Below, in pieces: positions 12,754 through 27,478 of a DNA stretch of 64,000 nt. The stretch lies in assembly GCA_963775425.1 (NCBI GenBank), contig CAVZJB010000004.1:1-64000 (forward strand), written 5' to 3'. The position numbers and the translations under genes are program-made. Each line of letters starts with the position of its first letter. Position 1 is the first letter of the stretch. Below the pieces are notes generated by a model. That model did no database searches. It was not told the DNA's origin and was given only the letters and a program-made list of their open reading frames with translations. This stretch comes from an uncultured delta proteobacterium (lineage in GTDB: Bacteria; Myxococcota; UBA727; VGSZ01).

Positions 12754-12862
12754 GGCGCCCGTGTCGACCGGCGCCTCGACGACGTCAACCTCCCTCGGGC
12801 CGCCGCCGCGGTCGTCGCTGCGGCGGCCGTCGGCGCGCGCGCGAGCGTGCTACCCTCGGTGC

Positions 12863-13655: not shown

Positions 13656-16600
13656 TCAGAACAGCGTGAGCTGGCGCTTCTTCGGATCGCTCATGACGGG
13701 CTCAGCCCCGCCCGCCTCGTCCGTCGGCTGCGCGCTCGACACCGCAGGTGTCGTCGGTGGCGGCGTGGCTGCCGGCGCTGGCGACGCGGCGGCCGTCGCG
13801 GAAGGCGTCACGGGCGCCGCCGAGGCCGGCGTCGTCGTCGCCGCGGGCGCGGGAGTCGCCGACGCCGACGCGGAGGTCGACGCGGAGGCCGACGCAGAGG
13901 TCGACGCGGAGCTCAGCGAGCTCATCAAGGCCTCGAACGCGTCCTCGTCGATGATCTGAAGGGCCGCCCCGTCGGCGACGAGCTTCTCCGCGGCCTTCTG
14001 CTTGGTCGACGGCGACGCGCGATCGCTCGCGCCGATGACGAGGTACGTGAGCGCCTTGGTCACGCCCGAGGGCACCGCGGCCCCGAGCGCCTTCACCCGC
14101 GCCTCGGCGGCCTTGCGGTCGATCCTGAGCTTGCCGGTGAACACGAAGGACTTGCCGGCGAGCCCGCCCGTCGTCGACGACGGCGCCGCGCCAAGCTCGA
14201 GCAGCGCCTCGAGCGCGTCGAGCAGCGCCGCGTTTTCGCGCAGGCCTTCGACGATGGCGGCGGCGATGACCTCGCCGAAGCCCTTGATGGCCGACAGCTC
14301 CCCCGCCGTCACCGCGCGCACGCGCGCGAGGGTCTCGTAGCGCTCCGCCAGCGTGCGCGCCGCGGTCTTTCCGAGGCTCGCGATGCCGAGCGCGCGCAGG
14401 AGCACGTCGAGCGGCAGGCGCCGCGCGCGGTCGATCTCCGCCACGATCTTCTGGGCGTTCTTGTCGCCGCACTTCTCGAGCGCCGCGAGCTGGCCGGCGG
14501 ACAGGCCATACAGGTCAGCGGGCGTCGTCAGCAAACCCTTCTGCACCGCCTCCTCGACGACCACCTCGCCGAGCCCCTGGATATCCGCGGCCTCCGCGAA
14601 GTGCAGCAGCCGCCCCACGCGCGCGGCCACGCAGCTCTCAGGCTTGCTGCACAACAGAAAGTCGCCCTCTTCGACGACGGGAGCGCCACACGCCGGGCAC
14701 GTCGACGGCACCGGCACCGGCTCCGTCCCCGGTGACAACACACGCTCCACGTGGGGGATGACGCCGCCGCGGCGCACCATGGCGATGCTCGCGCCGATGG
14801 ACAAGCCGAGCTTCGCCAGGAAGCCCTTGTGGTGGAGCGTGGCTCTCCCCACCGTCACGCCCGAGAGCTGCACAGGCTCGACCAGCGCGACCGGCGTGAT
14901 GGTCCCCGTGCGCGCCACGGACCACTCCACGCCGCGCAGCACCGACGTCCCCTCTTCGCCCTGGAACTTCCACGCGAGCGCCCAGCGCGGGTGGTGCGCG
15001 GTGGCGCCGAGGCGCTTGTGGGCCGCGACGTCGTCGGCCATGAGCACCACGCCGTCGGTCTCGTAGCCGAGCTCCCCTCGCCGCGCAGACAGCTCGGCCA
15101 CCGCGTCCATCGCCTTGTTCACAGGCACGACGACGACGTCGATGGCGCGGAAGCCGGCGTCCTTCGCCAGCGCGAGCTTGTCGCGCTGACGGGTGAACGC
15201 CCCCGCGCCGTCGCCGCGCACGTCGTACGCGAGGAACGACAGCTCCATCCTGCGCGTGGCGTTCGGGTCCTTCTGGCGGAGCGCCCCGGCCGCCAGGTTG
15301 CGCGGGTTGGCGCCGCGCTCGCCGGCGGACCGGGCTTTATGCTTCTCGAAGACTCGAAGTGACATGAAGACCTCGCCGCGCACCTCGAGCGGGGCGCGCT
15401 CGGGGTCGATGCGCGCCGGGATGTCGGCCACGCCGCGGGCGTTGGGCGTGATGTCCTCGCCCTCCTCGCCGTCCCCGCGGGTGGCGGCCACTTCGAGGTT
15501 CCCGGAAGCGTCATAGCGTAGCGAGCACGCCAGGCCGTCGATCTTCGGCATGGCGAGGACGTCGTCGCAGCCGAGGTCTCCCGCCCACTTCTCGAGGTCG
15601 CTCTGCTCGTAGCACTTGTCGAGCGAGAGCATGGGCTCCCGGTGCTTCACCGCGGAGAACGCGTCGGGTCGCGCGCCCAGGTGCTTGAGCGCCCGCGACG
15701 ACGGGTCGCGCGCGGAGAGCGCCCGGCAGAGGCGGTCGAACTCGACGTCGGAGATGACCGGCGCAGCCAGCTCCCAATAGAGGCGGTTGTGGCGCTCGAC
15801 GAGCGCCTCGAGGTCGGCGGTGCCGAGGCCGTCGAGGTCGGGCAGCCGTTCGGCCGCTACGGGGTCCTCGTCGTCGTCGCCCTCGGGCGCGTCGGCGGCC
15901 GGGGTGTCGTCGGCGTCGGGCGTGTACTCCTCGGTGGAGTCGAGCTTGGTCACCGACGTGCTGGGCGCCCGCGGCTTGTCGACGTCGAAGAAGTCGAGCT
16001 TGCCCGGGAGTGACGGCTCGTCGGCCTTGCTGCTCTTGACGTCCCAGAGCTTTCGCGCGAGCGCGTCGAGGTCCTCGCTGCGCTCCACGCCCGAGACCCA
16101 CTCGGGCTTGATGCCGGCGACGCCGCCGAGCGCGCCGGCGATGGAGCCGGCGATGCACGCGATGGAGTCGGAGTCACCCGACGAGTTCGCCCCACGCAGG
16201 ACGCTCTCGGTGAAGTCGCCCTTGGCCTTGAGCACGCACCACAACGCGCACGCGACGGCCTCTTCGCCCACCCAGGCGCCGCCGAGGAACTGGCAGACGT
16301 CCTCGCTGTCGTCGCCGAGCGCAGCGGCGGTCTCGTCGAGCATCTCCATCTGCTCGCGGATGCCGATGGCGTCGATGTCGCTGTCCTTGGCCCCGAGGTC
16401 GCGCAGGATCTCGGGCGTGACGCGGGAGACCATCTCCTTGGTGTACTCGATGATGCCGTCGAGGCCGTTGCCCTTGAGCACCCACGCCACCGGCGCCGCC
16501 GCCGCCACCGACGACGCGATGCCCGTCGGGTGGCTGTGCGTGAGCACCGACTGCGCCGCCGCCACCCTCACGAGGGCCTCGTCGTCGTCGTAGAAGAACA

Positions 16601-17042
16601 AGCCCACGGGAGCCGCGCGCATGGCGGCGCCGCAGCCCTTGGACTCCTTGACGCCGGCGTCCCGCCACGAAGCGCCGCCCTTGAGCTTGCGGCAGCCGGC
16701 GAGGCACGTTCCGCCGGGGGCGCGGTTGTTGGTCGGGTGCTCGGCCCAGGCGACGAACTCCCGACCGAGGAGCGTCATCAGCGCGTCGAGCGCGAGGCCG
16801 CCGCCCGCGCGGACCGTGTTGCCGGCGCGAACGAGCGCCCGCGCCACGGCGATGCTCATCTGGGTGTCGTCGGTGAAGGTGCCGGGCTTGTGGACGCCGG
16901 AGGCCTGGAAGTCCGTGAGGCCCTGCTCACCGTACTTGGCGCGGATGCGCGGCACCGATGAGATGAACTCCGTGGGGTGGCCGAGCGCGTCGCCGACGGC
17001 GAGCCCGATGAAAGAGCCGCGAAACCTGTCCACCGTCTCCAT
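13656..17042 (-). CDS. ligA: ADP-ribosylglycohydrolase (DraG/ARH-family) fused to NAD+-dependent DNA ligase
   Basis: ARH motifs GDALG, TDDTQM, GAAMR, THSH, GDSDS; ligase motifs MLSLDK, KIDG, RGEV, NPRNLAAG, DGVV, WKF, RTGTITP, C4 zinc finger, HhH repeats, BRCT (GKSFVFTG). Single frame; ATG 17042 has a GGAGG RBS. Confidence 0.92.
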   Translation of the reverse strand: METVDRFRGSFIGLAVGDALGHPTEFISSVPRIRAKYGEQGLTDFQASGVHKPGTFTDDTQMSIAVARALVRAGNTVRAGGGLALDALMTLLGREFVAWAEHPTNNRAPGGTCLAGCRKLKGGASWRDAGVKESKGCGAAMRAAPVGLFFYDDDEALVRVAAAQSVLTHSHPTGIASSVAAAAPVAWVLKGNGLDGIIEYTKEMVSRVTPEILRDLGAKDSDIDAIGIREQMEMLDETAAALGDDSEDVCQFLGGAWVGEEAVACALWCVLKAKGDFTESVLRGANSSGDSDSIACIAGSIAGALGGVAGIKPEWVSGVERSEDLDALARKLWDVKSSKADEPSLPGKLDFFDVDKPRAPSTSVTKLDSTEEYTPDADDTPAADAPEGDDDEDPVAAERLPDLDGLGTADLEALVERHNRLYWELAAPVISDVEFDRLCRALSARDPSSRALKHLGARPDAFSAVKHREPMLSLDKCYEQSDLEKWAGDLGCDDVLAMPKIDGLACSLRYDASGNLEVAATRGDGEEGEDITPNARGVADIPARIDPERAPLEVRGEVFMSLRVFEKHKARSAGERGANPRNLAAGALRQKDPNATRRMELSFLAYDVRGDGAGAFTRQRDKLALAKDAGFRAIDVVVVPVNKAMDAVAELSARRGELGYETDGVVLMADDVAAHKRLGATAHHPRWALAWKFQGEEGTSVLRGVEWSVARTGTITPVALVEPVQLSGVTVGRATLHHKGFLAKLGLSIGASIAMVRRGGVIPHVERVLSPGTEPVPVPSTCPACGAPVVEEGDFLLCSKPESCVAARVGRLLHFAEAADIQGLGEVVVEEAVQKGLLTTPADLYGLSAGQLAALEKCGDKNAQKIVAEIDRARRLPLDVLLRALGIASLGKTAARTLAERYETLARVRAVTAGELSAIKGFGEVIAAAIVEGLRENAALLDALEALLELGAAPSSTTGGLAGKSFVFTGKLRIDRKAAEARVKALGAAVPSGVTKALTYLVIGASDRASPSTKQKAAEKLVADGAALQIIDEDAFEALMSSLSSASTSASASASTSASASATPAPAATTTPASAAPVTPSATAAASPAPAATPPPTTPAVSSAQPTDEAGGAEPVMSDPKKRQLTLF

Positions 17043-17084
17043 CCGGACCTCCACGTCGCGATCGTCTCCGTCGTCCCCCGGCGA

Positions 17085-18491
17085 TCAACCTCGGGCCAAC
17101 GCACGCTGCAAGAGCAAGCCGAGCGCGGCGCCGCGCCGCGGGTCGACCATCTTCACCCAGGCGACCTTGCCCGCGAGGTGCGCGGCGAAGTCGGGGTGGT
17201 TGTCGCGGTTTTGCGCGGCCATGCCGGTCCTGGCGCAGTTGTGCAGGATGGCGCGCAGCCGCCGCACCTCGCGCCGGTCGACGGCCGGCTTGTCGTTGAC
17301 GACGACGCCCGTGACCTCCTGGCGGCGGCCGCGTCGCATGACGCGCGTCTTGTCCGCGTTCAGCACGAAGCCCTCGGCCTCGAGCACGCTGCGCGCGCAG
17401 CCGAGGACATGCGTGGTCTGGGCAGGGTCTTCACCGGAGAACGTGAGGTCGTCGGCGTAGCGCGTGTACGTCCAACCCGTGCTCTTCGCGAGCCCCGCGA
17501 GGCGCCGGTCGAGCTTCCCACACAGGACGTTGGTGATCGCCGGCGAGGTGCACGCGCCCTGCGGCAACTGCCGATCGCCGAGGGCGATGTAGAGCTTCTT
17601 TCCGTCGAGCTCGACCTCGGCGCGCGGCGGCTCCGTGCACAGGAGCGCGAGCACCGTGGCGACGCTCTCGGAGTAGCCGACCTTGACGAACAGGCCCTTC
17701 ACGCGGCGGAAGGTGATGGTGGGGAAGAAGTCCTTGAGATCGAGGTTCACCACCACCGGCTTGTGCACGTGCGGCCGCGCGTTGGTCACGACGCTTCGTT
17801 GAACGACGAAACCATGCGCGTGCTCGTCGACGCCGAGCTTGCTCAGGACGCGCTCGAGCACCCAGCGCTGCGCGCCGGCCAGCTTCTTCTTGGGCGCGGA
17901 GATGGCGCGAACGCCGCCGGTCTTCTTGGGCACGCCCCAGCGGTGGTAGTGCACGAGGGCCGCGCCCCGGCGGTGGTACGAGAGCCAGCGCAACTGCGAC
18001 AGCGGAACGCCCATGGCGAGCGCGAGCTCCGGCGCCGTGGACACCACCGGCAGCCCCGCGGCTTCGAGCTTCTGGACGTCGCTGGTGCGCCCCTCGAGGC
18101 CGCCGCTGACGCCGGCGCCGAGGTGGACGGCGTCCGCGTGCTTCTTCCTGGTCCAGCTCTCGCGGCGCTCGCGCGCGGTCTTTTCGCGGAGGACCTTCTT
18201 CTCCGCGCGCTTCTTGCGGGACTCCTGGGTGCGCCGCTCGTTCTCCGCCTTGAGCGCCGCCTCGGGGTCCTGCACCGCGAGCGCCGTGTGCATGAGCTTG
18301 TCGCGCTCGGCCTCGAGCTGCTTACGCGCCTTCTGCTCGTCCGCCGGGTCCTCGGGGAGGCCGACGCCGTGGGGCCAGAACCCGTTCACGCGCATGCGCT
18401 CGAGCACGATCCACTCGGGCCTGCCCGCGATGGAGTCCCACAGCTTCTGTTTCTCGCTCTTGGGTTTCTGGCTCGAGGTCACGGGAGGCAC
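17085..18491 (-). CDS. Retron-type reverse transcriptase with charged N-terminal extension
   Basis: DLKDFFPTI, LPQGACTSP, YADD, retron region X (NARPH = NAxxH) and region Y (VTG). Confidence 0.93.
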   Translation of the reverse strand: MPPVTSSQKPKSEKQKLWDSIAGRPEWIVLERMRVNGFWPHGVGLPEDPADEQKARKQLEAERDKLMHTALAVQDPEAALKAENERRTQESRKKRAEKKVLREKTARERRESWTRKKHADAVHLGAGVSGGLEGRTSDVQKLEAAGLPVVSTAPELALAMGVPLSQLRWLSYHRRGAALVHYHRWGVPKKTGGVRAISAPKKKLAGAQRWVLERVLSKLGVDEHAHGFVVQRSVVTNARPHVHKPVVVNLDLKDFFPTITFRRVKGLFVKVGYSESVATVLALLCTEPPRAEVELDGKKLYIALGDRQLPQGACTSPAITNVLCGKLDRRLAGLAKSTGWTYTRYADDLTFSGEDPAQTTHVLGCARSVLEAEGFVLNADKTRVMRRGRRQEVTGVVVNDKPAVDRREVRRLRAILHNCARTGMAAQNRDNHPDFAAHLAGKVAWVKMVDPRRGAALGLLLQRALARG

Positions 18492-18569
18492 TCCGAAGCG
18501 GGGACAAGCCCCGCGCTACCGGGGGAGACGAGCGCGCGGGCTGCGGGACGAGCCCGCGTACGGGACGAG

Positions 18570-18816
18570 GCGGGGGAAGACGGAACGAGCAGCAGCGCCT
18601 CTACGAACGCTCTTGGACGTGCTCGTTCCACTAAAGCGCCCGTCGGGGATGGCAAAAGCGCGCGAGTCGCGGCGCGACTCATACAGCTGCGCGCTGCCAT
18701 CCCTGACGGGCGCGGGTGAAGAACGGGCGCGTGACGAATGTCGGGCATCCGGGCATGTACGGCGTAACACCGCACGGTTGCTAGATCGCGACGCGCTGAT
18801 CGTTCCGTCTCCCCGC
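18570..18816 (-). ncRNA. Retron msr/msd non-coding RNA
   Basis: Inverted repeats 18570-18588 and 18800-18816 (11-bp perfect core agacggaacga/tcgttccgtct); long hairpin 18636-18713; short msr-like stems; ORF-poor gap directly upstream of the RT. Confidence 0.8.
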
Positions 18817-18851
18817 GACTCGTGGACCTGACCGCGGTTTTCCTGACGGCG

Positions 18852-20549
18852 TCAATGAACCTTGATGTCCTCCTGTTCGAGCTTGTCCATGTGGGCGAGC
18901 CGAAGCGCGAGCAGATGCTCACACGGGCCCTGGGTCAACTGGTTGCTCTTGAAATGCTTGCAGGTGCAGTTGCCCTCGATGATGGCGCCGGCGACGTCGA
19001 CGTGGAGCTGCGGCCGCACCCGGTCGCCCTTGGTGCCGAGCACCGAGCCCGAGAGCTTGAACCCCGTCTGCACGGGGCGGCGCGCGATGATGCGCACGTT
19101 GTCGCTCTTGAAGATGATGCGCGCGGCCTTGGCGAAGGGGTTCTGCTCTTCGACCACCTCGCTCACCGCCTGCTGGGCTTCCTTCATGGTGAAGGAGTCG
19201 AAGAACAGGTCCCTGTGGCGCCAGACGCCCGCGCCGATGTCGAACATGGCGCGCCCGACCTGACACAGATACGACAGCGCGCTCCGCGTCTTTTCGATGC
19301 CGAGCCCGCTCTTGGCCGCGACGTCGACGTCGGTGGCGAAGCGCACCTGTTTGAGCGCGTCGTACGCGTGCATCAGGTCCGCGGGCGTACCGTCGAGCCG
19401 ACGGGTGAGCAGGTCGAACTTGGCGCCGCCGGCCCAGTCGTTGTCCGTCCAGCCCGAGAGCGCCAGCGTGAACGTGGTGTCTCCGAGGTCGACGTCGTAG
19501 ATGGACGGCATCCCGAGCCCGGCCACGAACACGCGCACCTTGCGCGCCACGGGCAACAGGCGAGACAGCGTCTTCAAGCGGTCGCGGCCCCAGGTGCGCA
19601 CGATGGTGTCCGGGCCGTCCCAGACCGTGCCGATCTCGACGGGGTACTCCCACGGCTCGAGCACCGCCCGCACGCGCCGGCCCTTCACGAGCTCCCAGCG
19701 CAGCGCCCGCGGCGACGTGCGCGTCTTCTTCCTGCGCAGGAAGCGGATGATGTTGAACAGATCGATGGGCGCCACCTCGAACGAGGTGAGGCCCATGGCC
19801 ATGGTGGATTGCACCTGATGGAAGCCGCGCACCCAGCTCTCGGGCAGCTCGATCTTCTTCTCCTTGTGCACGCCGCCGCCGGGGCCGCTCGTGGTCACCG
19901 TGAGGCCGCCGGGCGCGATGTCGAGGTCGGTCTTCCGATAGGTGCGGATGCGATCGAGCTGGCGCGCGAGCGCGTGCGAGAAGTCGATGTTGGTGGTGCC
20001 GCACTGGAACTGGTCGACGCGCGAAAACAGCGAGCGCCTGGCGCCGAGCCTCGCATAGGAGGATTCGTCCTTGCTGAACGCCTCGAAGAACACCTCGTCG
20101 GGGTGAACGGTGATGACGGGGTCGAAGAGGTAGTTGAGCTCGTACTGGTGCTCGTAGACGTACTCGAAGTAGCGGTGGCGCGCGGCGTAGAAGGGCTTCC
20201 TGCGCTGCGCGCGCAGCTTGTCGAGCTCCGCGAGCTTCTGCTCCACGCGCTCGAGCTCCTCCTTGGCCTGCACCGACTTCGCCTTCAACGACATCAGGAA
20301 CTTGCGGTCCTGGTCGGCGAGCCAGGTCTGGAACGCGACGCGGTCCTTGGCCTTGTACCGGAAGTCGCTGATGACGACGTGGTGGAGCGCGCCGAGCGCC
20401 TCGCGAAACACGAGCGGCCGCTGCAGCTCCGCCTTGAAGTACGTGGCCTCACGCAGCGTGTTGGTGGCGAAGCCCACCTTGCCCGTGGTGAGCCCCTGCT
20501 CCACCCCGGAGGCGCCGTCGTAGCTCGTCTTCAAGGTGTGGCCGCTCAT
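18852..20549 (-). CDS. SWIM zinc-finger protein (retron-associated)
   Basis: C-terminal CTC...PCEH (CxC-xn-CxH); start MSGHTLK overlaps the upstream stop (ATGA). Confidence 0.85.
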   Translation of the reverse strand: MSGHTLKTSYDGASGVEQGLTTGKVGFATNTLREATYFKAELQRPLVFREALGALHHVVISDFRYKAKDRVAFQTWLADQDRKFLMSLKAKSVQAKEELERVEQKLAELDKLRAQRRKPFYAARHRYFEYVYEHQYELNYLFDPVITVHPDEVFFEAFSKDESSYARLGARRSLFSRVDQFQCGTTNIDFSHALARQLDRIRTYRKTDLDIAPGGLTVTTSGPGGGVHKEKKIELPESWVRGFHQVQSTMAMGLTSFEVAPIDLFNIIRFLRRKKTRTSPRALRWELVKGRRVRAVLEPWEYPVEIGTVWDGPDTIVRTWGRDRLKTLSRLLPVARKVRVFVAGLGMPSIYDVDLGDTTFTLALSGWTDNDWAGGAKFDLLTRRLDGTPADLMHAYDALKQVRFATDVDVAAKSGLGIEKTRSALSYLCQVGRAMFDIGAGVWRHRDLFFDSFTMKEAQQAVSEVVEEQNPFAKAARIIFKSDNVRIIARRPVQTGFKLSGSVLGTKGDRVRPQLHVDVAGAIIEGNCTCKHFKSNQLTQGPCEHLLALRLAHMDKLEQEDIKVH

Positions 20550-23176
20550 GCGGCCTCCTTGACGACGAGGTGCGGCACCTCGACGGACGGGAAGGCCAGC
20601 TTGATCTTCACCAGCGCCTCGAGCGCGCGCTCGCGGTCGTCGACGCACTGGGTGCGCACGAAGTCCGAGAGGACCTGCGCCGCCACCCCGGCCTGGTTCT
20701 CGTCCTGCTGCCCGCGCTCCCCGAGGAACGCGATGACCGTGCGCTTCACCTGACGCTCGGGCCACACATCGAAGAGCGCCGCGCGGAACAGCAGCTCGAG
20801 CTTGGCGAGCCGCACGAAGCCGGGCTTCAGGTGCTTGACGGCCATGTCCACCGCGTACCTGCGGGTCACCGGCGACGGGTGCTGCCCGAGCCGCGCCAGC
20901 AGCTCGTGCACGTCGACGGCCTCGGCGGCGATGGCGCGCTCGAGGATCTCGTGTGCCTTCTTCTGGACGTCGACGCGGGTGGAGTCGGCGAGGCCCATGA
21001 GCCCGTCGAGGCCGAGCGGCAGGAGGTCGACGCCGTCGATGAGCTTCAACGCCTCCGCGCGCACGTCGTCCCAATCGCTCTCGACGAGCCCGAACAGCAC
21101 CGAAGGATCGCGCTGGAGCTCGGCGCGGGCGCTCTCGAGGAGCGTCATGGCCGCCCGGCGCACGGCGGCCTTTTCGTGTGTGGCGAGCGCGAGCACCTGG
21201 GAGAGGCCGAGCACGTCGTACGCGCCTGGCTTCTTGGCGAGGATGGACGCGCCGACGGCGATGGCGGAGTCGCTCTCGGCGCCGACGAGCGCGATGGCGC
21301 GGGAGATGGGGCACGCCGCGGCGGCCTCGTCGAGGAGCCCCTCGCGAAGGACCGCGGCGAAGCCGGAGAACGCGCTCTCCTCGGGCTCCTTGTGCTCGAC
21401 GCGGTCGAGCAGCTCGCCCGCGAGGCGGCGGCGCTCGTCGGCCTCCAGCATCTTGACGGAGAGGTTCACGAGGCGGGCGGCGGCGTCGCGCGAGGCCGGT
21501 TGCGGCATCGAGAGGAAGCGGAGGATCCACTCGCGCCGCCGGGTCCACACGTGCGCGCTCTCGTTGAGCCACACGAGGCCGTGGTTGCGTACGAGGTCCT
21601 TCTGCGAGCCGGCGAGCTCGAGGACGAGGTCGAGGTCGGGCTGGTTGGGATCGAAGCGCCGACGCAGCTCCGTGAGGCCGAGGTCGACGATGCGCGCGTC
21701 GTCGCTGTCGAGGAGCGCCGCCACGTCGGCGTGCGTCGCCGCCTGCAGGGCCTCGGGGTGGCGCGTGACGCCTTCGAGGGCGAAGCGCTGCACGAGCGAG
21801 TGCCGCGCGCCGCCGAGGAGCCGCACGAACGCGCGCGGCGTGCGGTCCCAGAGCTCGGCGTAGGGCGCGTCCCCTCCAGACGACGGCGCGAGCGCGGGCG
21901 CGGCGCCCTTCAGCTTGGGCTTGTTCTTGAACCGCATCTGGCGGCCGTCGAACGTGTACTTGTTCGACGCGCCGAACAGCACGCGGTGCAGCATGTAGCT
22001 GCGGCCCGTGGCGGGCGAGTTTCCCTTGATGACGTCGTCACCGTCCTTGTAGTGGACGACGGCCTCGGCCGCGGCGAGCGCGTACTCCTCGGGGCGGTGC
22101 TTGGCCAACCGGCGCAGCCAGCGCCAGGCGCGGCGGCGCACGTAGTCGACGGTGGAGCGGGAGAAGACGCGGGTCTTCTTGGTCTCGCCGTCGTAGCCGC
22201 TCTTGAGCGTGGCAGTGTGGGCCTTCTGTGTGCGGGCCGCGATCTCGATGCAGTAGGAGAGCAGCCCGAACGTGGCGTAGTCGCGCCGCACCTGCGCGCG
22301 CTTCCACACGCTCTTGGTGTAGCGCCAGGTGTACGGCTGGTGCAGCGCGGCCGTCGTCAACATCGCCAGCGCCGCCTCGACGCACGGCGAGCGCGCCGCG
22401 AGCGCGCCGATGTCGACGGGGGACGGCGGCTTGCCCGCCGCGGCGTCGACGGTGCCTGCTGGGCCCGGCAGGGCGAGGAAGGTCTGCACGGCGCCGAGCT
22501 CGTAGAGGGTGTCGGCCGTGATGCCGCGGTCGCGGGCGTCCACGCCGGCGGTCGCGTTGATGATCGTCGACGCCGCCGCCGTCACCGCCGACCGCACGGC
22601 GTCGGGCAACCGCTGCACCGCGCGGTCGCGCGCCCCCTCGAGCGCCTCCCGCAGCGTGACGTCCCCGGGCGCGCGCGCGCCGATCTGCAAGAGCGCCTCG
22701 ACGCCCGCACGCCGGCGCGACAGCAGCTTGCGCTCGGCCTCCGCGCGCACCGCGGGCAGCGCGCGCACGTCGCCGAGAGCGCCGAGCGCGTCGACGACGC
22801 TCGAGACGTCGTCCTTGGGCTTGTCGAGGAGCTGCAAGAGCGGCTCGACCGCCGACGCCTCCCCGCGCCAGCCGATGCGCCGCTCCGCTCTCGCCCGCGT
22901 GCGCGGGTTCTTCTCCTTTAGCGCGAGCAGCAGTTGGCCGAGACCGCCGGCGACGTAGCCCTCGCCGAAGAGGCCGTCGACGATGGACTTGTGCGCGAGC
23001 GCGACCTCTTCGGCCGAGAACGGCCCGAACATCCGGGCGTCGGTGAGCGCGGTCCGCTTCTTTCCCCGTGCGACCTGCACCATGAAGGCGCCGGGCTGCC
23101 CGCTGGCGGGCTCCACGGTCACGAGCGCGATGCGCTCGGGCCTGGAGGGGTGAAAGAGGCGGACGGGATCGATCAT
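20546..23176 (-). CDS. HEAT/ARM-repeat protein with degenerate N-terminal WGR-like domain
   Basis: Repeats such as ALGALGDVRALP, VRRAA, DDVRAEA; N-terminal FMVQVARGK...EGY; ATGA overlaps on both sides. Confidence 0.8.
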   Translation of the reverse strand: MIDPVRLFHPSRPERIALVTVEPASGQPGAFMVQVARGKKRTALTDARMFGPFSAEEVALAHKSIVDGLFGEGYVAGGLGQLLLALKEKNPRTRARAERRIGWRGEASAVEPLLQLLDKPKDDVSSVVDALGALGDVRALPAVRAEAERKLLSRRRAGVEALLQIGARAPGDVTLREALEGARDRAVQRLPDAVRSAVTAAASTIINATAGVDARDRGITADTLYELGAVQTFLALPGPAGTVDAAAGKPPSPVDIGALAARSPCVEAALAMLTTAALHQPYTWRYTKSVWKRAQVRRDYATFGLLSYCIEIAARTQKAHTATLKSGYDGETKKTRVFSRSTVDYVRRRAWRWLRRLAKHRPEEYALAAAEAVVHYKDGDDVIKGNSPATGRSYMLHRVLFGASNKYTFDGRQMRFKNKPKLKGAAPALAPSSGGDAPYAELWDRTPRAFVRLLGGARHSLVQRFALEGVTRHPEALQAATHADVAALLDSDDARIVDLGLTELRRRFDPNQPDLDLVLELAGSQKDLVRNHGLVWLNESAHVWTRRREWILRFLSMPQPASRDAAARLVNLSVKMLEADERRRLAGELLDRVEHKEPEESAFSGFAAVLREGLLDEAAAACPISRAIALVGAESDSAIAVGASILAKKPGAYDVLGLSQVLALATHEKAAVRRAAMTLLESARAELQRDPSVLFGLVESDWDDVRAEALKLIDGVDLLPLGLDGLMGLADSTRVDVQKKAHEILERAIAAEAVDVHELLARLGQHPSPVTRRYAVDMAVKHLKPGFVRLAKLELLFRAALFDVWPERQVKRTVIAFLGERGQQDENQAGVAAQVLSDFVRTQCVDDRERALEALVKIKLAFPSVEVPHLVVKEAA

Positions 23177-23895
23177 TCTTCGTCGTCGAAGTCGTCCGCG
23201 TCGTCGTCCGACAGCGGCGTGGGCGCGGGCGCGTTGATGGCGGCGGTGGCGGCGGCGATCTTCTGCTTGCCGGCGTCGCTCTTCATGGTGTCGCCGAACT
23301 CACCGAGGTCGCCGAGGATCTCTTCGAGCGCTTTGCGCATCTCGGCGTAGTCCGTGAACTCCTTCTCGCGGAACAGGTTGTAGGCCGTCCACATCAGGTC
23401 CGCGCAGATCTCCACCGGCGTCTTGCCCGTGGCCGCGCCGAGGCCCGGCAGCGCCACCGAGCGGATCTGCCCGCCGTGCTGCGCGTTGTACATGTGCACC
23501 GCCTGAAACGCCGCACAGCACGCGAGCGCGACGTTGAGCGTGTTGCTGACGTCGTCACTGGAGCCCATCATGGTGGGCGTGGAGATCAGGAAGCGCGGCA
23601 TATCCGCACCCGTCTCCACGCACGTGGCCGTACCGACCTTCATGGTGCCGCCGTAGAGGCTCTTCACCTCGGCCTGCACCTTCTTTTCAATCTGCACGCC
23701 GAGCTGCCGCTTGATGACGGCGTCGAGCCCGCCGTCCATGGACGCCTTGGCGTTGGTGGGCGTCACCCACGCGCCCACCTGCTGCTCGAGCATGGAGCCC
23801 TGGATGATGTCCACCTCGGGGTTCTCTTCGAACGTCTCGCGCCAGGCCGCGATCATCTTCGGGTTGATGTCCACCAACGCCACACGCACCAACAT
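23173..23895 (-). CDS. Macrodomain (Appr-1''-p processing) protein
   Basis: VTPTNA.ASMDGGLD, ISTPTM and VALPGLGAATG macrodomain motifs; AAGGAG RBS; acidic tail. Confidence 0.85.
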   Translation of the reverse strand: MLVRVALVDINPKMIAAWRETFEENPEVDIIQGSMLEQQVGAWVTPTNAKASMDGGLDAVIKRQLGVQIEKKVQAEVKSLYGGTMKVGTATCVETGADMPRFLISTPTMMGSSDDVSNTLNVALACCAAFQAVHMYNAQHGGQIRSVALPGLGAATGKTPVEICADLMWTAYNLFREKEFTDYAEMRKALEEILGDLGEFGDTMKSDAGKQKIAAATAAINAPAPTPLSDDDADDFDDEE

Positions 23896-23907
23896 GACGG
23901 GCTCCTT

Positions 23908-25326
23908 CTACGCCTTGAACTCGACGAGATACTCGAGGCGCTGCTGGTTCTGCCGATAGATCACGTACTCGTCGTCCTCGAACTGCGACGGCAGGCCCTT
24001 GCGGTTGCGCAGGCCGTGGCACGAGTCGTAGCCGGGCGGCGGCTCGTTCAAGCCGTACGTGATCTTGGTGAACTCCTTCATGTTGCCGAGCCCCACGCGG
24101 GCGATGGCCATGAAGCGCGTCCGCTTGCTCCCCGGCGTCGTGTAGAACGCCGACGTGCACGACGCGTCGCCGAAGTAGATGCCGTTGCCGAGCCAGCCGG
24201 CGTCGGTGCGGTTCACGCCCATCGACACCACGATCTTCGGCATCAGGATCCCGCGCGACAGGATGCCCACCCAGTTCTTGATGCGCGAGCCGTGGAACAT
24301 CATCTTCTCGTTGCCGACCTTGGTGTCGAACGCGTCCCACTCCGCGGGGCGCTTCAGCTTGAAGACGTTCAGCACCTTGATGTTCTTCGACTTCACCTGG
24401 TGGCCGACGACGTAGTCGGCCCACTCGTCGCGCTCGGCCTTGCCGCACTCGACGAGCTCGCAGCCGAGCGCCTTGTACTGGTCGTCCACCTGGTTGTTGA
24501 ACAAGACGGAGCCCTGCTCGCCGTTCACCGCGAGCATGTCCTTCATGAGCTGAAGCGTCTCCTGCTTGGCCGCGATCTCGGCGAGGGTGTCGATGACGGC
24601 GGCGGCGATGGCGTCACGCGTGCGGCCGATGCGGTGCGGGACGGCGGTGTAGAAGTCACCGGACAGGTCCTCGAGGCGCGACTTGGACGCGCTCTTCTTC
24701 ACCGCGTCGTTGATCTCCTCGAGGATCTCCTCGCCCTTCTCCACCTGCCCGACGGTGAGCACGCCGAGCGGCGTCTCGATGCCGTTGGCGGTGATCTTGG
24801 CGGCGACGGTGGTGGTGAGCGCGTTGGTGGCCTCGGCATAGATGTACTTGACGAGCTCCTGGACGCCGCCGGGCAGCGCGCTCGGCGCCGACGCCTTGGG
24901 CGCGGCGGCCTTTTCGTCGGGGGCCATCTTGGCCACGGTCTTGTCGTCGACGTGGCCCGACGAGCTCCCGCGCGCCTTCTGCGAGCCGATCTTCGACGAC
25001 GCCAGCGCCACCTCCTTGTAGCCCTTGGAGCGGCCGGTCTTCTCCCGATAGATGCGGTCGTACTCGGCCTGCGCGGCGGCGAGGTGGGCGAAGTAGCGCG
25101 ACTCCTTGGCGCCCGCGTTGGGGTCGTGCTCGAGGTCGTCGGTGCGGCCGTAGTGCGTGAACACGCGGAAGCTGGCGCCGGCGGAGTGCAGCTCGATGCC
25201 GTAGTACTTGTTGTTGTTGTTCTTGATGTCGGTGACCTGAAGCACGGCGCGCTTCACGATCTCGAAGTCATCCGGGAACGACGGCTGCGCCGGATCGTTG
25301 ATTCGCCACGCTTTCGCTCCCGCCAT
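23908..25326 (-). CDS. PARP-like ADP-ribosyltransferase (WGR - regulatory helical - catalytic)
   Basis: NNNKYY..HYGR (WGR), LSGDFYTAVPH (regulatory domain), FHGS / GIYFG / DEYVIY (H-Y-E triad); ATG 25326 with GAGGAGG RBS. Confidence 0.92.
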   Translation of the reverse strand: MAGAKAWRINDPAQPSFPDDFEIVKRAVLQVTDIKNNNNKYYGIELHSAGASFRVFTHYGRTDDLEHDPNAGAKESRYFAHLAAAQAEYDRIYREKTGRSKGYKEVALASSKIGSQKARGSSSGHVDDKTVAKMAPDEKAAAPKASAPSALPGGVQELVKYIYAEATNALTTTVAAKITANGIETPLGVLTVGQVEKGEEILEEINDAVKKSASKSRLEDLSGDFYTAVPHRIGRTRDAIAAAVIDTLAEIAAKQETLQLMKDMLAVNGEQGSVLFNNQVDDQYKALGCELVECGKAERDEWADYVVGHQVKSKNIKVLNVFKLKRPAEWDAFDTKVGNEKMMFHGSRIKNWVGILSRGILMPKIVVSMGVNRTDAGWLGNGIYFGDASCTSAFYTTPGSKRTRFMAIARVGLGNMKEFTKITYGLNEPPPGYDSCHGLRNRKGLPSQFEDDEYVIYRQNQQRLEYLVEFKA

Positions 25327-25441
25327 GCCCGCCTCCTCGTGCGCTGAGCGGCGGACGCTACGCCCGAGCGCGTCGTCGAGGCAACGGACCTCGAGGCGAC
25401 CCGTGCCGGCGGTCACGACGTGGCCGTAACGAGCCGAATGA

Positions 25442-25966
25442 TCAGGAGAAGACGGCGGGGAGGAACCAGCGGGCGTGGGTCAGGCCGGCGATGGTCTTGG
25501 CGTCGTGGATCTCGCCGTTGGCGACCATGCGCATGCAGTCGTCGTAGCGGAACGCCCTCACGTCGGTGATCACCTCATCCTCGTCCGGCTTCTTCTTCGC
25601 GGGCGACAGCTCGCGAGCGATGAAGATGTGGATCTTCTCGTCGCAGAAGCCGGGCGTGGTGAAGATGAAGCCCGCGTGCTCGAGGCGGCCGGCCTCGACG
25701 CCGGCCTCCTCGACGAGCTCGCGGCGCGCACACTGCTCCGGCGTCTCGCCCGCGTTCAGCGTGCCGGCCGGGCACTCCCACAGCCAACCGCCTGCGCAGT
25801 GGCGCCACTGCTTGATGAGCGTGACGCGGTCGCGGTCCATCGGCACGATGAGCGAGGCGCCGGGGTGCTTGATGACGTCGAGCGTGACCGTCAGCCCTGA
25901 CGGCAACGTCACCTCCTCGGTGCCGACGTCGATGACCCGTCCTTGAAAGATGTGCTTGCGTGTCAT
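25442..25966 (-). CDS. Nudix hydrolase, ADP-ribose pyrophosphatase (NudF)-like
   Basis: Nudix box GTLNAGETPEQCARRELVEEAG, HPGA, TPGFCDE, IHDAKT; start MTRKH overlaps the upstream stop. Confidence 0.88.
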   Translation of the reverse strand: MTRKHIFQGRVIDVGTEEVTLPSGLTVTLDVIKHPGASLIVPMDRDRVTLIKQWRHCAGGWLWECPAGTLNAGETPEQCARRELVEEAGVEAGRLEHAGFIFTTPGFCDEKIHIFIARELSPAKKKPDEDEVITDVRAFRYDDCMRMVANGEIHDAKTIAGLTHARWFLPAVFS

Positions 25967-26439
25967 CCGCAGAGCTCCCCCATTTCCTCGAGGCCGACCA
26001 CCGTACCCACGAAAGGCGCCTCCATGTCGACGAAGCGCATCAGGTTCATTCCCGTGCCGATGATCGGCCACGCCGGGTGCGGCGCCGTGAGCATGTGCGA
26101 GCGATCGGACGCGAACGTCTCGACGTAGGTGGCGGCGTCGACGACGCGGAAGCGGGGTGGCTCGGCCAGGGGCGGGAAGCTCTCGTCGAGCCACGTGCGC
26201 GCGGGCACGGGAAAGCCGAGCGTGGTGTCGAGATCCCACACGACGCCGGGCGTGATGAGGACGACGTGGTAGTCCCAGAAGATCACCCCGCCCCGCCCCG
26301 CCTGCTGGTGGCGCATCGCCACCCGCCGCGCCGGGTTGGACACGAAGACCACGCGCCGTCTCTCCTTCGGCACCCGGACGGAGGCGTCCTGGCACAGGTG
26401 CCACACGTTCTCCTCGCAGAAACAGGCGCAGTAGCGCAT
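25963..26439 (-). CDS. Protein N-terminal glutamine amidohydrolase (NTAQ1)-like
   Basis: CEENVW, WDYHV, DLDT, FASDRSHM motifs (Cys-His-Asp triad); GGAGGAG RBS. Confidence 0.8.
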   Translation of the reverse strand: MRYCACFCEENVWHLCQDASVRVPKERRRVVFVSNPARRVAMRHQQAGRGGVIFWDYHVVLITPGVVWDLDTTLGFPVPARTWLDESFPPLAEPPRFRVVDAATYVETFASDRSHMLTAPHPAWPIIGTGMNLMRFVDMEAPFVGTVVGLEEMGELCG

Positions 26440-26471
26440 CGCTCCTCCATTCTGGTGTAAACCAGGGGTTC

Positions 26472-27446
26472 ATGGCGACGAGGCGATCCTTCGACGACTC
26501 CGACGAGGAGGAGGAGGCAACGGCGATCGATCTGCGATCGACCAGCCAGGCCATCAAGCGATCCATCTCCGCCAAGCCGGGTCGCGCGCCCGCGCGCAGC
26601 CCCGAGCCCAGGAGCCGCGCCTCGTCGGAGCGGCTGCACCAAAGCGAGGAGCACGACGAGGAGGCCACCGAGTTCCTCTCGCCGCGCCCGGCGTCCGTGC
26701 GCTCCTCGCAGGGCGACGGCGTCCCGTCGTCGCTGCGCGCCCGCGGTCGCGCGGTGCCGCTCGAGGCGGACGAGGACCCCGCGCCGTCTCGCGGGGACAA
26801 GCGCGGCGAGGCCGGCACCATCACGGACCCGGAGGTGGTCCCCGCGGCGCTGCCGCAGCGCACGCCGCGCCCGCTGCCCCCTCGCATCGTGAGCGACATG
26901 AAGAGCGAGACCCAGACCGGCAGCTCCACCGGCGGCGGTCAGAAGTCTTCGCCGCGCATCACGCGCATCTTCGTGGACCCGGACGCCACACACCGGCAGA
27001 TCGTCGACGACGACGACGCCGTCTCGCAGACCGATCCCGGCGACGGCGAGCCCACCGATCCCCCGCGGCCGCGCCCGCTGCCGCCCGCGGGCAAGCCGCC
27101 GACCATCGCCGCGGTCTCGTTGCCGAGCGGCGAGACCAGCGGCAAGAACCCACATCACCGCCGGGCGAAGACGGAGCGCACGCGCACCAACCCGTCGTCG
27201 GAGACGCTCGAGGCCGAGCCCGCCGACGGCACCCTCATCGTCGAGGTGCCCGACGGCGCCGTCGTCTTCATCGACGGCCTCGAGCGCGGCACCGGCCCTT
27301 CGCTGCGGGTCAAAGAGATCGACCGCTACGCCAAGCACGCCGTGCGCATCCACTGCCCCGGCTATCTCCCCTGGAGCGGCAGCGTCTGTCTCGAGGGCCG
27401 CACCGCCGCCAAGATCCGCCCCGGGCTGAAGAAGCGCCCCTCGTAG
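26472..27446 (+). CDS. Disordered protein with C-terminal PEGA-like domain
   Basis: Low-complexity P/S/D/E N-terminus; PDGAVVFIDG...G...PGY.PW at the C-terminus. Confidence 0.65.
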   Translation: MATRRSFDDSDEEEEATAIDLRSTSQAIKRSISAKPGRAPARSPEPRSRASSERLHQSEEHDEEATEFLSPRPASVRSSQGDGVPSSLRARGRAVPLEADEDPAPSRGDKRGEAGTITDPEVVPAALPQRTPRPLPPRIVSDMKSETQTGSSTGGGQKSSPRITRIFVDPDATHRQIVDDDDAVSQTDPGDGEPTDPPRPRPLPPAGKPPTIAAVSLPSGETSGKNPHHRRAKTERTRTNPSSETLEAEPADGTLIVEVPDGAVVFIDGLERGTGPSLRVKEIDRYAKHAVRIHCPGYLPWSGSVCLEGRTAAKIRPGLKKRPS

Positions 27447-27478
27447 GCCTCGCGCTTCCGTTGCCGTGGGGCGCGCGC

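Follow-up and report, generated by a model that had tools for sequence, protein, structure and literature searches.

A type XIII retron encoded beside a PARP, a macrodomain protein and an ARH–DNA ligase fusion in an uncultured delta proteobacterium

The 64,000-nucleotide stretch of DNA analyzed here (the window) encodes on its minus strand, at 13656–26439, eight co-oriented genes and one structured non-coding RNA that place a type XIII (Mx162-like) retron among enzymes of ADP-ribosylation. The conserved core of the cluster, judging from its recurrence in other genomes, consists of genes for a PARP, a macrodomain protein, a HEAT-repeat protein and a SWIM protein, followed by the ncRNA and the reverse transcriptase (RT), and the linkage between PARP and retron appears to be more than chance adjacency. 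We propose that the cluster is a distinct PARP-bearing subtype of type XIII retron, in which DNA would gate ADP-ribosylation in the service of phage defence; taken jointly, subtype, mechanism and role stand in our estimate at about an even chance of being right.

The cluster is bounded by two genes on the plus strand (12575–13606 and 26472–27443). From its 5' end it comprises, all on the minus strand, genes for an N-terminal glutamine amidase-like protein of 158 aa (25963..26439; Pfam PF09764 Nt_Gln_amidase, 3.3e-39), a Nudix hydrolase of 174 aa (25442..25966; Pfam NUDIX, 3e-20, Nudix box present), the PARP of 472 aa (23908..25326; Pfam WGR, PARP_reg (HD) and PARP), the macrodomain protein of 240 aa (23173..23895; Pfam Macro, 8e-9), a HEAT/ARM-repeat accessory protein of 876 aa (20546..23176; PADLOC type XIII profiles, Pfam HEAT_2) and a SWIM zinc-finger protein of 565 aa (18852..20549; PADLOC SWIM_XIII, 9.9e-175), then the msr/msd ncRNA (approximately 18574..18814), the RT of 468 aa (17085..18491; PADLOC RT_XIII, 1.9e-167; Pfam RVT_1) and an ARH-LigA fusion gene (13656–17042; Pfam ADP_ribosyl_GH and a full LigA). 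Four-nucleotide ATGA overlaps occur at the amidase/Nudix, macrodomain/HEAT and HEAT/SWIM junctions; the gaps are 12 nt from PARP to macrodomain gene, 42 nt from RT to ARH-LigA, given an ATG at 17042, and 115 nt from Nudix to PARP, given an ATG at 25326, a start supported by the Met-Ala beginning common to 8/8 aligned PARPs. An earlier, sequence-only reading had described eight co-oriented genes plus an ncRNA, with 12-nt, ATGA and 42-nt junctions; Pfam, gene coordinates and RNA folding agree with that layout and its domains, and the coordinates with those junctions.

The assignment to type XIII, already made in that reading, is confirmed by matches to the PADLOC RT_XIII, SWIM_XIII and WGR_XIII/HEAT-ARM_XIII profiles. 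The RT active-site motif YADD (Y345-A346-D347-D348) is unchanged in 13/13 aligned RTs. The SWIM protein scores slightly below the family cut-off of Pfam SWIM (0.002), and a sequence search for relatives of solved structure found none. The HEAT protein matches WGR_XIII (1e-92, over profile positions 243–536 only) and HEAT-ARM_XIII (3e-52). Its N-terminus had been labeled WGR-like, a label that neither Pfam, a PARP-derived profile nor a fold search upholds: the model of this region (pLDDT 81.6) is a small domain of four strands and one helix for which structure searching gave no significant fold match. The 360-nt gap between the SWIM and RT genes contains an RNA of ~241 nt with a long terminal a1/a2 stem (approximately, a1 at about 18795–18814 and a2 at about 18574–18593) and a long msd hairpin at about 18616–18732; G18781, within a TAGC motif, is a candidate branching G. 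The minimum free energy of this RNA is -139 kcal/mol (z = -7.9), and 0/200 shuffled sequences fold as well. It was found in 14/14 loci of the RT clade described below, where 37/48 pairs of the alignment have compensatory changes on both sides, a value attained by 0/500 shuffles, and 94% of alignment cells are paired, versus 34–43% with the partners slid. A search against Rfam matched no family.

The PARP retains an intact H-Y-E triad, with H345, Y384 and E453 unchanged in 8/8 orthologues. Among solved sequences the closest is the catalytic region of PARP4 (4e-47), and the region from WGR to catalytic domain aligns also to PARP2 and PARP1; none of the PADLOC profiles matches it. Two further WGR-HD-PARP genes lie elsewhere in the genome, on contig C6. 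In the macrodomain protein, the motif N48-x6-G55-G56-L57-D58 is unchanged in 9/9 aligned proteins. Its AF2 model (pLDDT 69.8) finds in Foldseek yeast Ymx7 (1njr, 9.6e-9) as best match, followed by macroH2A macrodomains, MacroD2, YmdB and DarG. Because this hydrolase-type motif is invariant, an enzymatic or regulatory role is more likely for the protein than the reader role given to it earlier. A model of the PARP–macrodomain complex reached an ipSAE of 0.69, against 0.00 for the best of 3 controls, with contacts at least 90% in agreement between runs and a partner pLDDT of at least 79. The pass mark for such models is met by 58/80 solved complexes and 2/110 mismatched pairs, counts that hold only roughly here because the complex modeling used its own alignments. 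The modeled interface on PARP comprises residues 8–10, 36–38, 59–61 (the Y-G-R of the WGR motif), 64–75 and, in the HD, 235–240; the macrodomain is thus predicted to dock on the WGR/HD surface.

The ARH module of the fusion (about aa 1–345; 16008..17042; Pfam PF03747, 1.6e-70) has MJ1187, ARH1 and DraG as its closest solved sequences, and its metal-site motifs TDDTQM and GDSDSI are present in 20/20 ARH modules retrieved. The LigA module (about aa 405–1040; 13923..15830) scores 508 bits against a TIGR00575 cut-off of 444; its alignment with E. coli LigA (2owo; 6e-96) runs from domain Ia through BRCT and includes the KxDG lysine as well as the zinc-finger cysteines, as in a complete NAD+-dependent DNA ligase. 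The fusion ends, after a low-complexity linker, in the pentapeptide QLTLF (13659..13673), which we take to fit the sliding-clamp-binding pattern; 6/6 ARH-LigA orthologues from genomes terminate in QL[TS]LF, with a linker before it that varies. The genome encodes a second, ordinary LigA on contig C11, 45% identical to that of the fusion and lacking this tail. The Nudix protein has NudE and YffH/AdpP as its best NCBIfam matches, both under their cut-offs, and would be nearest to the NudE/ADP-ribose pyrophosphatase group. The CEEN, WDYH and DLD motifs readable in the translation of the glutamine amidase are presumably the Cys/His/Asp triad of its family. An amidase gene lies 5' of PARP only in L016–L018, L112–L115 and L190, and both it and the Nudix gene appear to be narrower accessory additions, seen in the closest relatives of the window.

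Recurrence of the cluster was surveyed from both sides. In a tree of 92 RT rows, the PARP-macrodomain-HEAT-SWIM-ncRNA-RT arrangement recurs within a single clade of 15 rows (SH-aLRT 98) that spans Myxococcota, Planctomycetota and Pseudomonadota; all PARP-linked loci fall in it and 0/77 other rows have one, two divergent cases being counted apart. Among the 9 clade rows with enough upstream sequence, the macrodomain gene is present in 9/9 and PARP in 8/9, and one clade member (L034) has the former without the latter. At four clade loci the flanking genes (NHL repeat and cytochrome P460; deoxyhypusine synthase; DUF4336; a sulfatase-family protein) are unrelated to those beside the cluster in the window. 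From the PARP side, 30 of 80 metagenome loci were assessable (at least 8.3 kb downstream), and macrodomain, HEAT, SWIM and RT genes follow PARP in 17 of these and not in 13. A PARP clade of 61 rows (SH-aLRT 97) includes all retron-linked rows, with 25 assessable rows linked to a retron versus 4 without; members of the subfamily at L124/L125, L135, L156, L140, L131, L148/L149 and L134 lack one, as does an 18-row sister clade. The two divergent cases, type XIII retrons outside the RT clade in Bacteroidota (L107) and Planctomycetota (L086), have a WGR-PARP adjoining the RT that is only about 25% identical and unrelated-looking, and they would represent independent recurrence of the pairing. The surveys thus refute the possibility, raised with the sequence-only reading, that PARP, macrodomain and ARH genes never accompany this retron clade, co-occurrence being seen across phyla. 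As a single set with ARH-LigA the claim holds in part: PARP and macrodomain form the core, while ARH is frequent yet variable, occurring as a fusion or as a separate gene on either strand and missing from 3/14 assessable genome loci and 6/17 metagenome loci. The ligase fusion recurs in the window's own family and five metagenome loci, and in only part of the RT clade.

We infer that DNA gates the ADP-ribosylation and that erasers restrain it. The RT would make a long hairpin msDNA, held by a complex of RT, HEAT and SWIM proteins, while PARP would be kept off by its own HD domain and by the macrodomain on its WGR/HD surface. Alteration or release of the msDNA, such as a phage nuclease might cause, or the appearance of foreign or broken DNA ends would be the trigger; the WGR domain would then bind a DNA end and PARP would fire, consuming NAD+ and ADP-ribosylating proteins or DNA ends. 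Macrodomain and ARH would erase stray or finished marks, Nudix would clear free ADP-ribose, and ARH-LigA would uncap and seal nicks at the sliding clamp. It is reasonable to suppose that msDNA or DNA breaks control PARP through the WGR domain; that msDNA itself is the ligand is conjecture.

That two unrelated systems, a retron and a set of ADP-ribosylation genes, stand side by side by chance in this lineage is very improbable. For the window's own family, common descent could be enough to account for the synteny, the flanks being conserved as well, and the PARP subfamily does occur without retrons. Against this, the same gene order is found in three phyla with differing flanks at the four loci examined, the genes overlap or sit 12 nt apart, RT clade and PARP clade match each other, and divergent WGR-PARPs adjoin two other type XIII retrons; given the RT-side and PARP-side surveys, chance adjacency seems already close to refuted. 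A more serious competitor, though still unlikely, is a domesticated system of DNA repair or damage signaling rather than immunity, in which PARP would sense chromosomal nicks and breaks via WGR, as PARP1–3 do, macrodomain and ARH would reverse the marks, and the sliding clamp would recruit ARH-LigA to seal the break, the retron serving as DNA cofactor or regulator. The WGR-HD-CAT architecture matches break-sensing PARPs, and a complete second ligase whose tail is conserved in all six orthologues suits repair better than abortive infection. The position of the cluster is constant in related genera of the window's family, as are its flanks, ordinary genes among which no defence island or mobile element was recognizable; this is what vertical inheritance would give, perhaps with a housekeeping role, and it counts against our proposal as a whole, as do the PARP subfamily members without retron, L034 without PARP, the variable ARH and the lack of a PADLOC profile for the PARP. 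Type XIII retrons, moreover, correlate with 16S and may be domesticated for non-defence functions, according to the main text of Mestre et al. 2020 (PMC7736814). Yet only some clade members have the ligase fusion, and no ligase belongs to the core shared across phyla. A patchy distribution in three phyla, with accessory genes that vary, is typical of defence systems; an ordinary LigA and two more WGR-HD-PARPs are already present elsewhere in the genome; and all retrons tested to date are, per published abstracts, anti-phage.

Less probable again is that the msDNA or the RT–msDNA complex is the substrate of PARP and not its activator. ADP-ribose attached reversibly to the msDNA end or to retron proteins would then set the state of the retron, and macrodomain and ARH would reset it. 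Writer and erasers are indeed co-encoded with the msDNA-making genes, with catalytic motifs conserved in PARP, macrodomain and ARH, and PARP-family enzymes and DarT can ADP-ribosylate DNA, a modification that macrodomains and ARH3 can reverse, which also speaks for it. The predicted macrodomain–PARP contact, however, would point to direct regulation of the enzyme and not to action on a shared substrate. Between defence and repair, we infer phage defence to be the more likely biological role of the cluster.

In the full text of the papers searched we found no retron with a PARP, macrodomain and ARH set, in keeping with the earlier reading, which knew of none described with a PARP, a macrodomain and an ARH-ligase fusion. 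The nearest relatives are the type XIII retrons Mx162, Mx65, Sa163 and Ne144 described by Mestre et al. 2020 (PMC7736814), whose main text names neither PARP nor ligase. They share with the cluster the PADLOC RT class, the SWIM protein, the HEAT/ARM accessory protein and a long-hairpin ncRNA immediately upstream of the RT. In the classical members examined, the large accessory protein (about 1030–1100 aa, versus 876 aa) opens with a WGR domain, found by the PARP-derived profile; here WGR is no longer detected at the N-terminus, the HEAT gene comes after genes for a full PARP and a macrodomain protein, and an ARH is usually encoded downstream of the RT. Retron-Eco1 and Retron-Sen2 (type II-A) likewise combine a retron with an NAD+-using, ADP-ribosylating effector: their RcaT proteins are reported (10.64898/2026.10.13.758329) to hydrolyze NAD+ and to ADP-ribosylate themselves, and to be kept in check by RT-msDNA. 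Unlike the cluster, RcaT comes without WGR or HD, and without a macrodomain or ARH eraser. To our knowledge it is not a PARP-family enzyme.

DarTG also pairs an ADP-ribosyltransferase with a macrodomain, which there reverses the mark and restrains the transferase; it has no RT, ncRNA, HEAT or SWIM protein, and DarT is a small DNA-specific transferase, not a WGR-HD-PARP. The Foldseek matches of the macrodomain include DarG, but membership in DarTG was rejected, the PADLOC DarG match (0.009) being far too weak. The eukaryotic set of PARP1/2/3 with PARG/ARH3/MacroD and ligase shares the WGR DNA-end sensor, HD brake and H-Y-E catalytic domain, erasers of the macrodomain and ARH types, and a ligase that seals nicks; the present set is bacterial and operon-encoded, its catalytic domain is closest to PARP4 by sequence, the ligase joined to its ARH is an NAD+-dependent LigA, and all are tied to an RT and msDNA. 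Finally, stand-alone bacterial WGR-PARPs such as that of Herpetosiphon aurantiacus, thought to be horizontally acquired according to Perina et al. 2014 (PMC4245714), have the WGR domain and conserved H-Y-E triad in common with the PARP of the window; they are described without a retron context, whereas the PARP clade reported here is retron-linked in 25/29 assessable rows.

On the minus strand, from 26439 down to 13656, eight genes lie head to tail in a region of about 72% G+C, with plus-strand genes on both borders. By Pfam domain content they encode, in order, an N-terminal glutamine amidase, a Nudix protein, a PARP with WGR, PARP regulatory and PARP catalytic domains (472 residues, 23908..25326), a macrodomain protein (240 residues, 23173..23895), a HEAT-repeat protein, a SWIM-finger protein, a reverse transcriptase (RT) and ARH-LigA, a protein of 1128 residues in which an ADP-ribosylglycohydrolase (ARH) is fused to a complete NAD+-dependent DNA ligase. 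The sequence-only reading had described eight co-oriented genes with a structured ncRNA, which the Pfam assignments, the coordinates and the predicted RNA fold confirm, and the coordinates also bear out its junctions: three 4-nt overlaps, 12 nt between the PARP and macrodomain genes and 42 nt between the RT and the fusion. Between the Nudix and PARP genes lies a 115-nt non-coding gap (25327-25441), and because the module begins at the PARP in other phyla, an internal promoter may reside there. A consensus scan for sigma-70 promoters and for terminators, uninformative at 72% G+C, returned zero promoters, hence none in this gap, and in the intergenic stretches no minus-strand terminator that was convincing.

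Profile matches identify the cluster as a type XIII retron, in agreement with the earlier proposal, since the RT, SWIM and HEAT proteins all match type XIII profiles in PADLOC. The top profile for the RT is RT_XIII (1.9e-167; 556 bits vs 391 for the runner-up), and its YADD active site is invariant in 13 of 13 aligned RTs. The SWIM protein matches SWIM_XIII (9.9e-175) over profile positions 3-504 of 509, and the HEAT protein, which carries Pfam HEAT_2, matches the central part of WGR_XIII (1e-92) and also HEAT-ARM_XIII (3e-52). A PDB sequence search found no relative for the SWIM protein; for the HEAT protein, the matches were all designed alpha-repeat proteins. No PADLOC profile matches the PARP, and the remaining matches are weak (macrodomain to DarG, 0.009; Nudix to PDC-S07; the BRCT end of the fusion to PDC-S48). 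The type includes Mx162, the first retron ever found. In the parts of Mestre et al. 2020 (PMC7736814) that were covered, type XIII (Mx162, Mx65, Sa163, Ne144) is defined by exactly these partners (SWIM, cluster 114; HEAT/ARM), and an accessory protein of the type carries a WGR-like N-terminal domain (cluster 216_1). The N-terminus of the window's HEAT protein had likewise been called WGR-like, a label that found no support: Pfam WGR was not detected, hhalign against the WGR domain of the PARP gave a probability of 0.1, and a diverse-PARP/WGR profile, which does match classical type XIII accessory proteins, gave no match at E <= 0.01. The predicted fold of this region is a four-strand sheet with a helix, for which the best Foldseek E was 0.3, with a PARP1 chain at 0.89, and a search of the Atlas gave no usable match.

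The 360-nt gap that precedes the RT gene is predicted to form a long terminal stem (a1/a2) around a short and a long hairpin, as expected of an msr/msd; the fold has a z of -7.9, and none of 200 shuffles fold as well. An Rfam search of 17000-21000 at E <= 1 matched no family. The spacer between the SWIM and RT genes can be aligned in all 14 loci of the RT clade described below that include it, and RNAalifold predicts 48 pairs in these loci, 37 of them with compensatory changes. In a count on this alignment, from which the structure itself was derived, paired cells amount to 94.0%, vs 34-43% when the partners are slid by 1-3 columns, and the observed value is reached by 0 of 500 shuffles. From myxobacteria to planctomycetes, the short msr hairpin and the lower long stem are nearly invariant in sequence; the upper part of the long stem is free to vary with its pairing kept, a pattern that would be expected were the hairpin base recognized by proteins. 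A putative priming guanosine for branched msDNA is the G at 18781 in a TAGC motif. No RNA run is listed among the sequencing runs that contain the sequence, and one soil DNA run contains 0.05 of the sampled words. At a Sandaracinaceae locus (L036:8520-8750), short tandem repeats that are absent from the other loci lie in the stretch separating the ncRNA from the start of the RT.

Among 61 related genomes, an orthologous RT (54-67% identity) is present in 8 of the 11 that belong to the family of the window organism, its own included. The full eight-gene order, at 42-85% protein identity, is found in all three family loci that lie on long contigs (L016-L018), and four short family contigs show the parts that fit, three of them including the RT followed by ARH-LigA. 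Since flanking genes are also common to loci within the family, synteny at this level would by itself prove little, and it is recurrence across phyla that carries weight. A scan with the RT alignment, using one genome per species, returned 80 loci, each of which was searched with the eight window proteins. The order PARP-macro-HEAT-SWIM-RT was found in L032 (on the same contig as L018), L033, L035, L036 and L083, and macro-HEAT-SWIM-RT without the PARP in L034; the contigs of L037 and L039 are truncated upstream. A 92-RT tree groups these rows with the family rows in one 15-row clade (SH-aLRT 98), with the other 77 rows all outside, and by record titles the clade spans Myxococcota, Planctomycetota (Tepidisphaerales, Isosphaeraceae) and one Rhodanobacteraceae genome. 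The survey of neighbouring genes shows that the PARP and macrodomain do recur with this RT clade across phyla, the macrodomain in 9 of 9 rows with enough upstream sequence and the PARP in 8 of 9. For ARH-LigA, the association proposed by the sequence-only reading holds in part: an ARH is present in 11 of the 14 rows whose downstream sequence is assessable, as a LigA fusion in 7, as a free, convergent gene in 3 and as a same-strand gene on a truncated contig in 1, and is missing in L034, L035 and L037. At the four loci whose flanks were examined (L033-L036), these are unrelated to the genes beside the window cluster. The window's genome also contains, on contig C18 (~104000-107650, L023), a second, paralogous type XIII retron whose RT is 44% identical; it consists of SWIM and RT with no PARP, macrodomain or ARH detected, and has the same form in the relatives G005, G009 and G045.

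The same association was approached from the PARP through a metagenome scan with the PARP alignment, which returned 80 loci. Macro-HEAT-SWIM-RT follows in 17, and does not in 13, of the 30 loci in which 8.3 kb or more of sequence follows the PARP start; 8 more loci end within the HEAT gene and 17 within or just past the macrodomain gene. In a PARP tree of 87 rows, from which 4 short fragments were dropped, a 61-row clade (SH-aLRT 97) contains all 25 retron-linked rows and just four assessable rows without an RT (L124 = L125, L135, L156), and an 18-row sister clade has neither macrodomain nor retron; near-duplicate rows (L124/L125, L130/L132, L035/L139, L148/L149) make the independent cases somewhat fewer than these counts. 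An ARH accompanies the 17 metagenome retron loci in LigA-fused form in 5 and in free form in 6, with none within range in 6. Subfamily PARPs that lack a retron lie beside ordinary genes or have an ARH immediately upstream (L149, L156), which argues that the PARP with its eraser is a module in its own right, built into the retron in one large lineage. At one metagenome locus (L131:3294-7298), a 1335-residue protein with a peptidase M48 domain follows the PARP in place of the macrodomain and retron. Two tandem WGR-HD-PARP genes on contig C6 of the window's genome (~25668-28693; L029, L031) bring its PARPs to three, and both score above the retron-linked PARP on the Pfam WGR and PARP_reg models. 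In a plasmid collection, the sole matches were distant WGR-PARPs of no more than 33% identity, carried by megaplasmids of Bacillales.

The pairing of PARPs with type XIII retrons extends beyond this clade. A diverse-PARP profile run on all six-frame ORFs of 85 type XIII loci detected full PARPs at the five loci of the clade and at two outside it, L107 (Sphingobacteriales) and L086 (Pirellulaceae), whose PARPs are ~25% identical to that of the window and whose RTs fall in other clades. The order at L107 (L107:2740-11392) is WGR-PARP, WGR protein, a protein of 975 residues that matches nothing in Pfam, SWIM and RT, a parallel PARP-retron architecture with a divergent PARP and no macrodomain; at L086 the RT is followed directly by a WGR-PARP and then by a sulfatase-family gene. 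At classical type XIII loci, the profile matches weakly, and by its WGR part alone, the N-termini of accessory proteins of ~1030-1100 residues and those of the ~478-residue proteins that adjoin them. The full PARPs at L107 and L086, together with these WGR matches, indicate that WGR domains are a general companion of type XIII retrons and that in three RT lineages or more the WGR is joined to a PARP. At three PARP-retron loci from two phyla, a gene of the sulfatase / type I phosphodiesterase family comes immediately after the RT or PARP (L034:11403-14618(-), L035:11332-14166(-), L086:6021-7583(+)), none of which has an ARH match, and might encode an alternative ADP-ribose-processing enzyme.

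To judge from their sequences, the enzymes of the cluster look active. In the PARP, Pfam recognizes WGR (5.6e-10), PARP_reg (1.2e-18) and PARP (3e-30) domains, and the H-Y-E triad (H345, Y384, E453), which aligns with that of PARP4, is invariant in 8 of 8 PARPs. The nearest solved sequence is the catalytic region of PARP4 (4e-47), and the WGR-HD-catalytic span aligns with PARP2 and PARP1. The macrodomain (Pfam Macro, 8e-9) has no solved relative in a PDB sequence search; its AF2 model, of moderate confidence (pLDDT 69.8), has as Foldseek neighbours yeast Ymx7, the macroH2A macrodomains, MacroD2 and YmdB (E of 1e-8 to 1e-5 for Ymx7, MacroD2 and YmdB), with DarG further down. In 9 of 9 sequences, N48 and G55-G56-L57-D58 (N-x6-GGLD) are unchanged, and so is the glycine-rich loop. 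MacroD-type proteins are defined by an Nx6GG[VLI]D motif and a second motif, G[VIA][YF]G; here the loop reads G-L-G-A-A-T-G, and the protein is therefore filed as a macrodomain of uncertain class and not as MacroD-type.

When the PARP and macrodomain proteins were co-folded, the model confidence was 0.69, against 0.00 for the best of three controls; in the calibration of the method, 58 of 80 solved complexes reach the pass mark, as do 2 of 110 mismatched pairs, counts that are only rough here since our own alignments were used. At least 90% of contacts are common to the three runs, and the partner pLDDT is at least 79. On the PARP side the predicted interface is formed by the WGR domain, including Y59-G60-R61, and by HD residues 235-240, and on the macrodomain side by the helices that flank the glycine-rich loop, with many residues invariant on both sides. 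We know of no solved WGR-macrodomain complex that the model could be remembering. The macrodomain is thus predicted to contact the WGR/HD surface of the PARP.

The ARH part of the fusion (PF03747, 1.6e-70) contains TDDTQM and GDSDSI, which we take to be the acidic metal-site motifs of the ARH/DraG family; both also occur in 20 of 20 modules retrieved from other loci. Free ARHs represent a separate, well-conserved type, ~36-40% identical to the fused ones. The ligase part scores 508 bits against TIGR00575 (NCBIfam equivalog cut-off 444) and aligns to E. coli LigA (2owo) from domain Ia to BRCT, with the full domain set: Ia, adenylation with the KxDG lysine, OB, Zn finger with its cysteines, HhH and BRCT. 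The fusion is not the only ligase of the cell, as a second, tail-less LigA, 45% identical, is encoded on contig C11, and a Trp at one domain Ia position, considered as a fusion-specific feature, is also present in this ordinary LigA. In 6 of 6 ARH-LigA orthologues taken from genomes, the C-terminal pentapeptide is QL[TS]LF, preceded by an otherwise unconserved linker. Pentapeptides of the C-terminal QL[SD]LF-like pattern bind the beta sliding clamp, and the end of ARH-LigA, which fits this pattern, is a putative site of this kind. In the window the linker before QLTLF (13674-13860) is a long Ala/Ser/Thr/Pro low-complexity stretch; each orthologue has a linker of its own length and sequence, a Val/Glu/Ala repeat in the case of L021. 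The domain combination suggests that ARH-LigA couples the removal of ADP-ribose from DNA ends to the sealing of nicks. The Nudix protein is nearest to NudE and to ADP-ribose pyrophosphatases in NCBIfam, below both cut-offs.

Comparison among these loci demonstrates conserved gene co-occurrence, conserved catalytic residues and a conserved structured ncRNA, and a mechanism can be proposed. The RT would make a long hairpin msDNA, held by the RT, HEAT and SWIM proteins, and the PARP would be kept off by its HD domain and by the macrodomain bound on the WGR/HD surface. A change in the msDNA, or the arrival of DNA ends, would lead the WGR domain to engage DNA and release the catalytic domain, so that NAD+ would be consumed and proteins or DNA ends ADP-ribosylated, a modification that the macrodomain and ARH could limit or reverse. 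In the window's family, the Nudix protein would clear free ADP-ribose, and a clamp-tethered ARH-LigA would uncap and seal nicks. A bolder form of this scheme, which we put forward tentatively as a rather unlikely one, is that msDNA is the natural ligand of the PARP, a masked "broken-DNA mimic" which, once unmasked or damaged by a phage, triggers poly-ADP-ribosylation by way of the WGR domain, the bound macrodomain serving as a brake. If true, the circuit known from eukaryotic repair (DNA-end sensor, PARP, macrodomain/ARH eraser, ligase) would also exist as a prokaryotic immune module, and the recurrent association of type XIII retrons with WGR domains would reflect a single shared principle, the reading of msDNA by WGR.

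Whether such a system would serve defence or DNA repair is a matter on which the evidence divides. The ligase with its clamp-type C-terminal tail, the ordinary flanking genes and the conserved chromosomal position all speak for repair, a serious alternative that we consider the less probable because the patchy spread across phyla and the variable accessory genes count for defence. We therefore favour defence, in which case the cluster would be, to our knowledge, the first PARP-based anti-phage system; were it a repair system, it would be a case of retron domestication for genome maintenance.

The retron frame is known, and the PARP-based set of effector and erasers, together with the ARH-LigA fusion, is new within the literature covered, namely parts of Mestre et al. 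2020 (PMC7736814), a 2026 SPIRE retron survey, Perina et al. 2014 (PMC4245714) and a 2026 Sen2 preprint (10.64898/2026.10.13.758329). In the full texts covered, no PARP, macrodomain, ARH or ligase is linked to a retron, in accord with the earlier remark that no described retron with a PARP, a macrodomain and an ARH-ligase fusion was known to its author; the supplementary cluster tables of Mestre et al. might list such proteins. The same sources, as far as covered, state no function or effector chemistry for type XIII retrons and assign no biological role to bacterial PARPs. The cluster brings the two together: for a retron type it offers a definite effector chemistry, ADP-ribosylation that depends on NAD+ and has erasers of its own. 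It also suggests msDNA or DNA ends as the ligand of a bacterial PARP, would account for the recurrence of WGR domains in type XIII accessory proteins, and adds, in ARH-LigA with its clamp-type tail, a new domain combination. The nearest working precedent in the literature covered is the retron that carries RcaT, the effector of Retron-Eco1/Sen2, which, in the parts of the Sen2 preprint covered (10.64898/2026.10.13.758329), hydrolyses NAD+, ADP-ribosylates itself and is held by RT-msDNA: an NAD+-using, ADP-ribosylating effector under the restraint of its retron.
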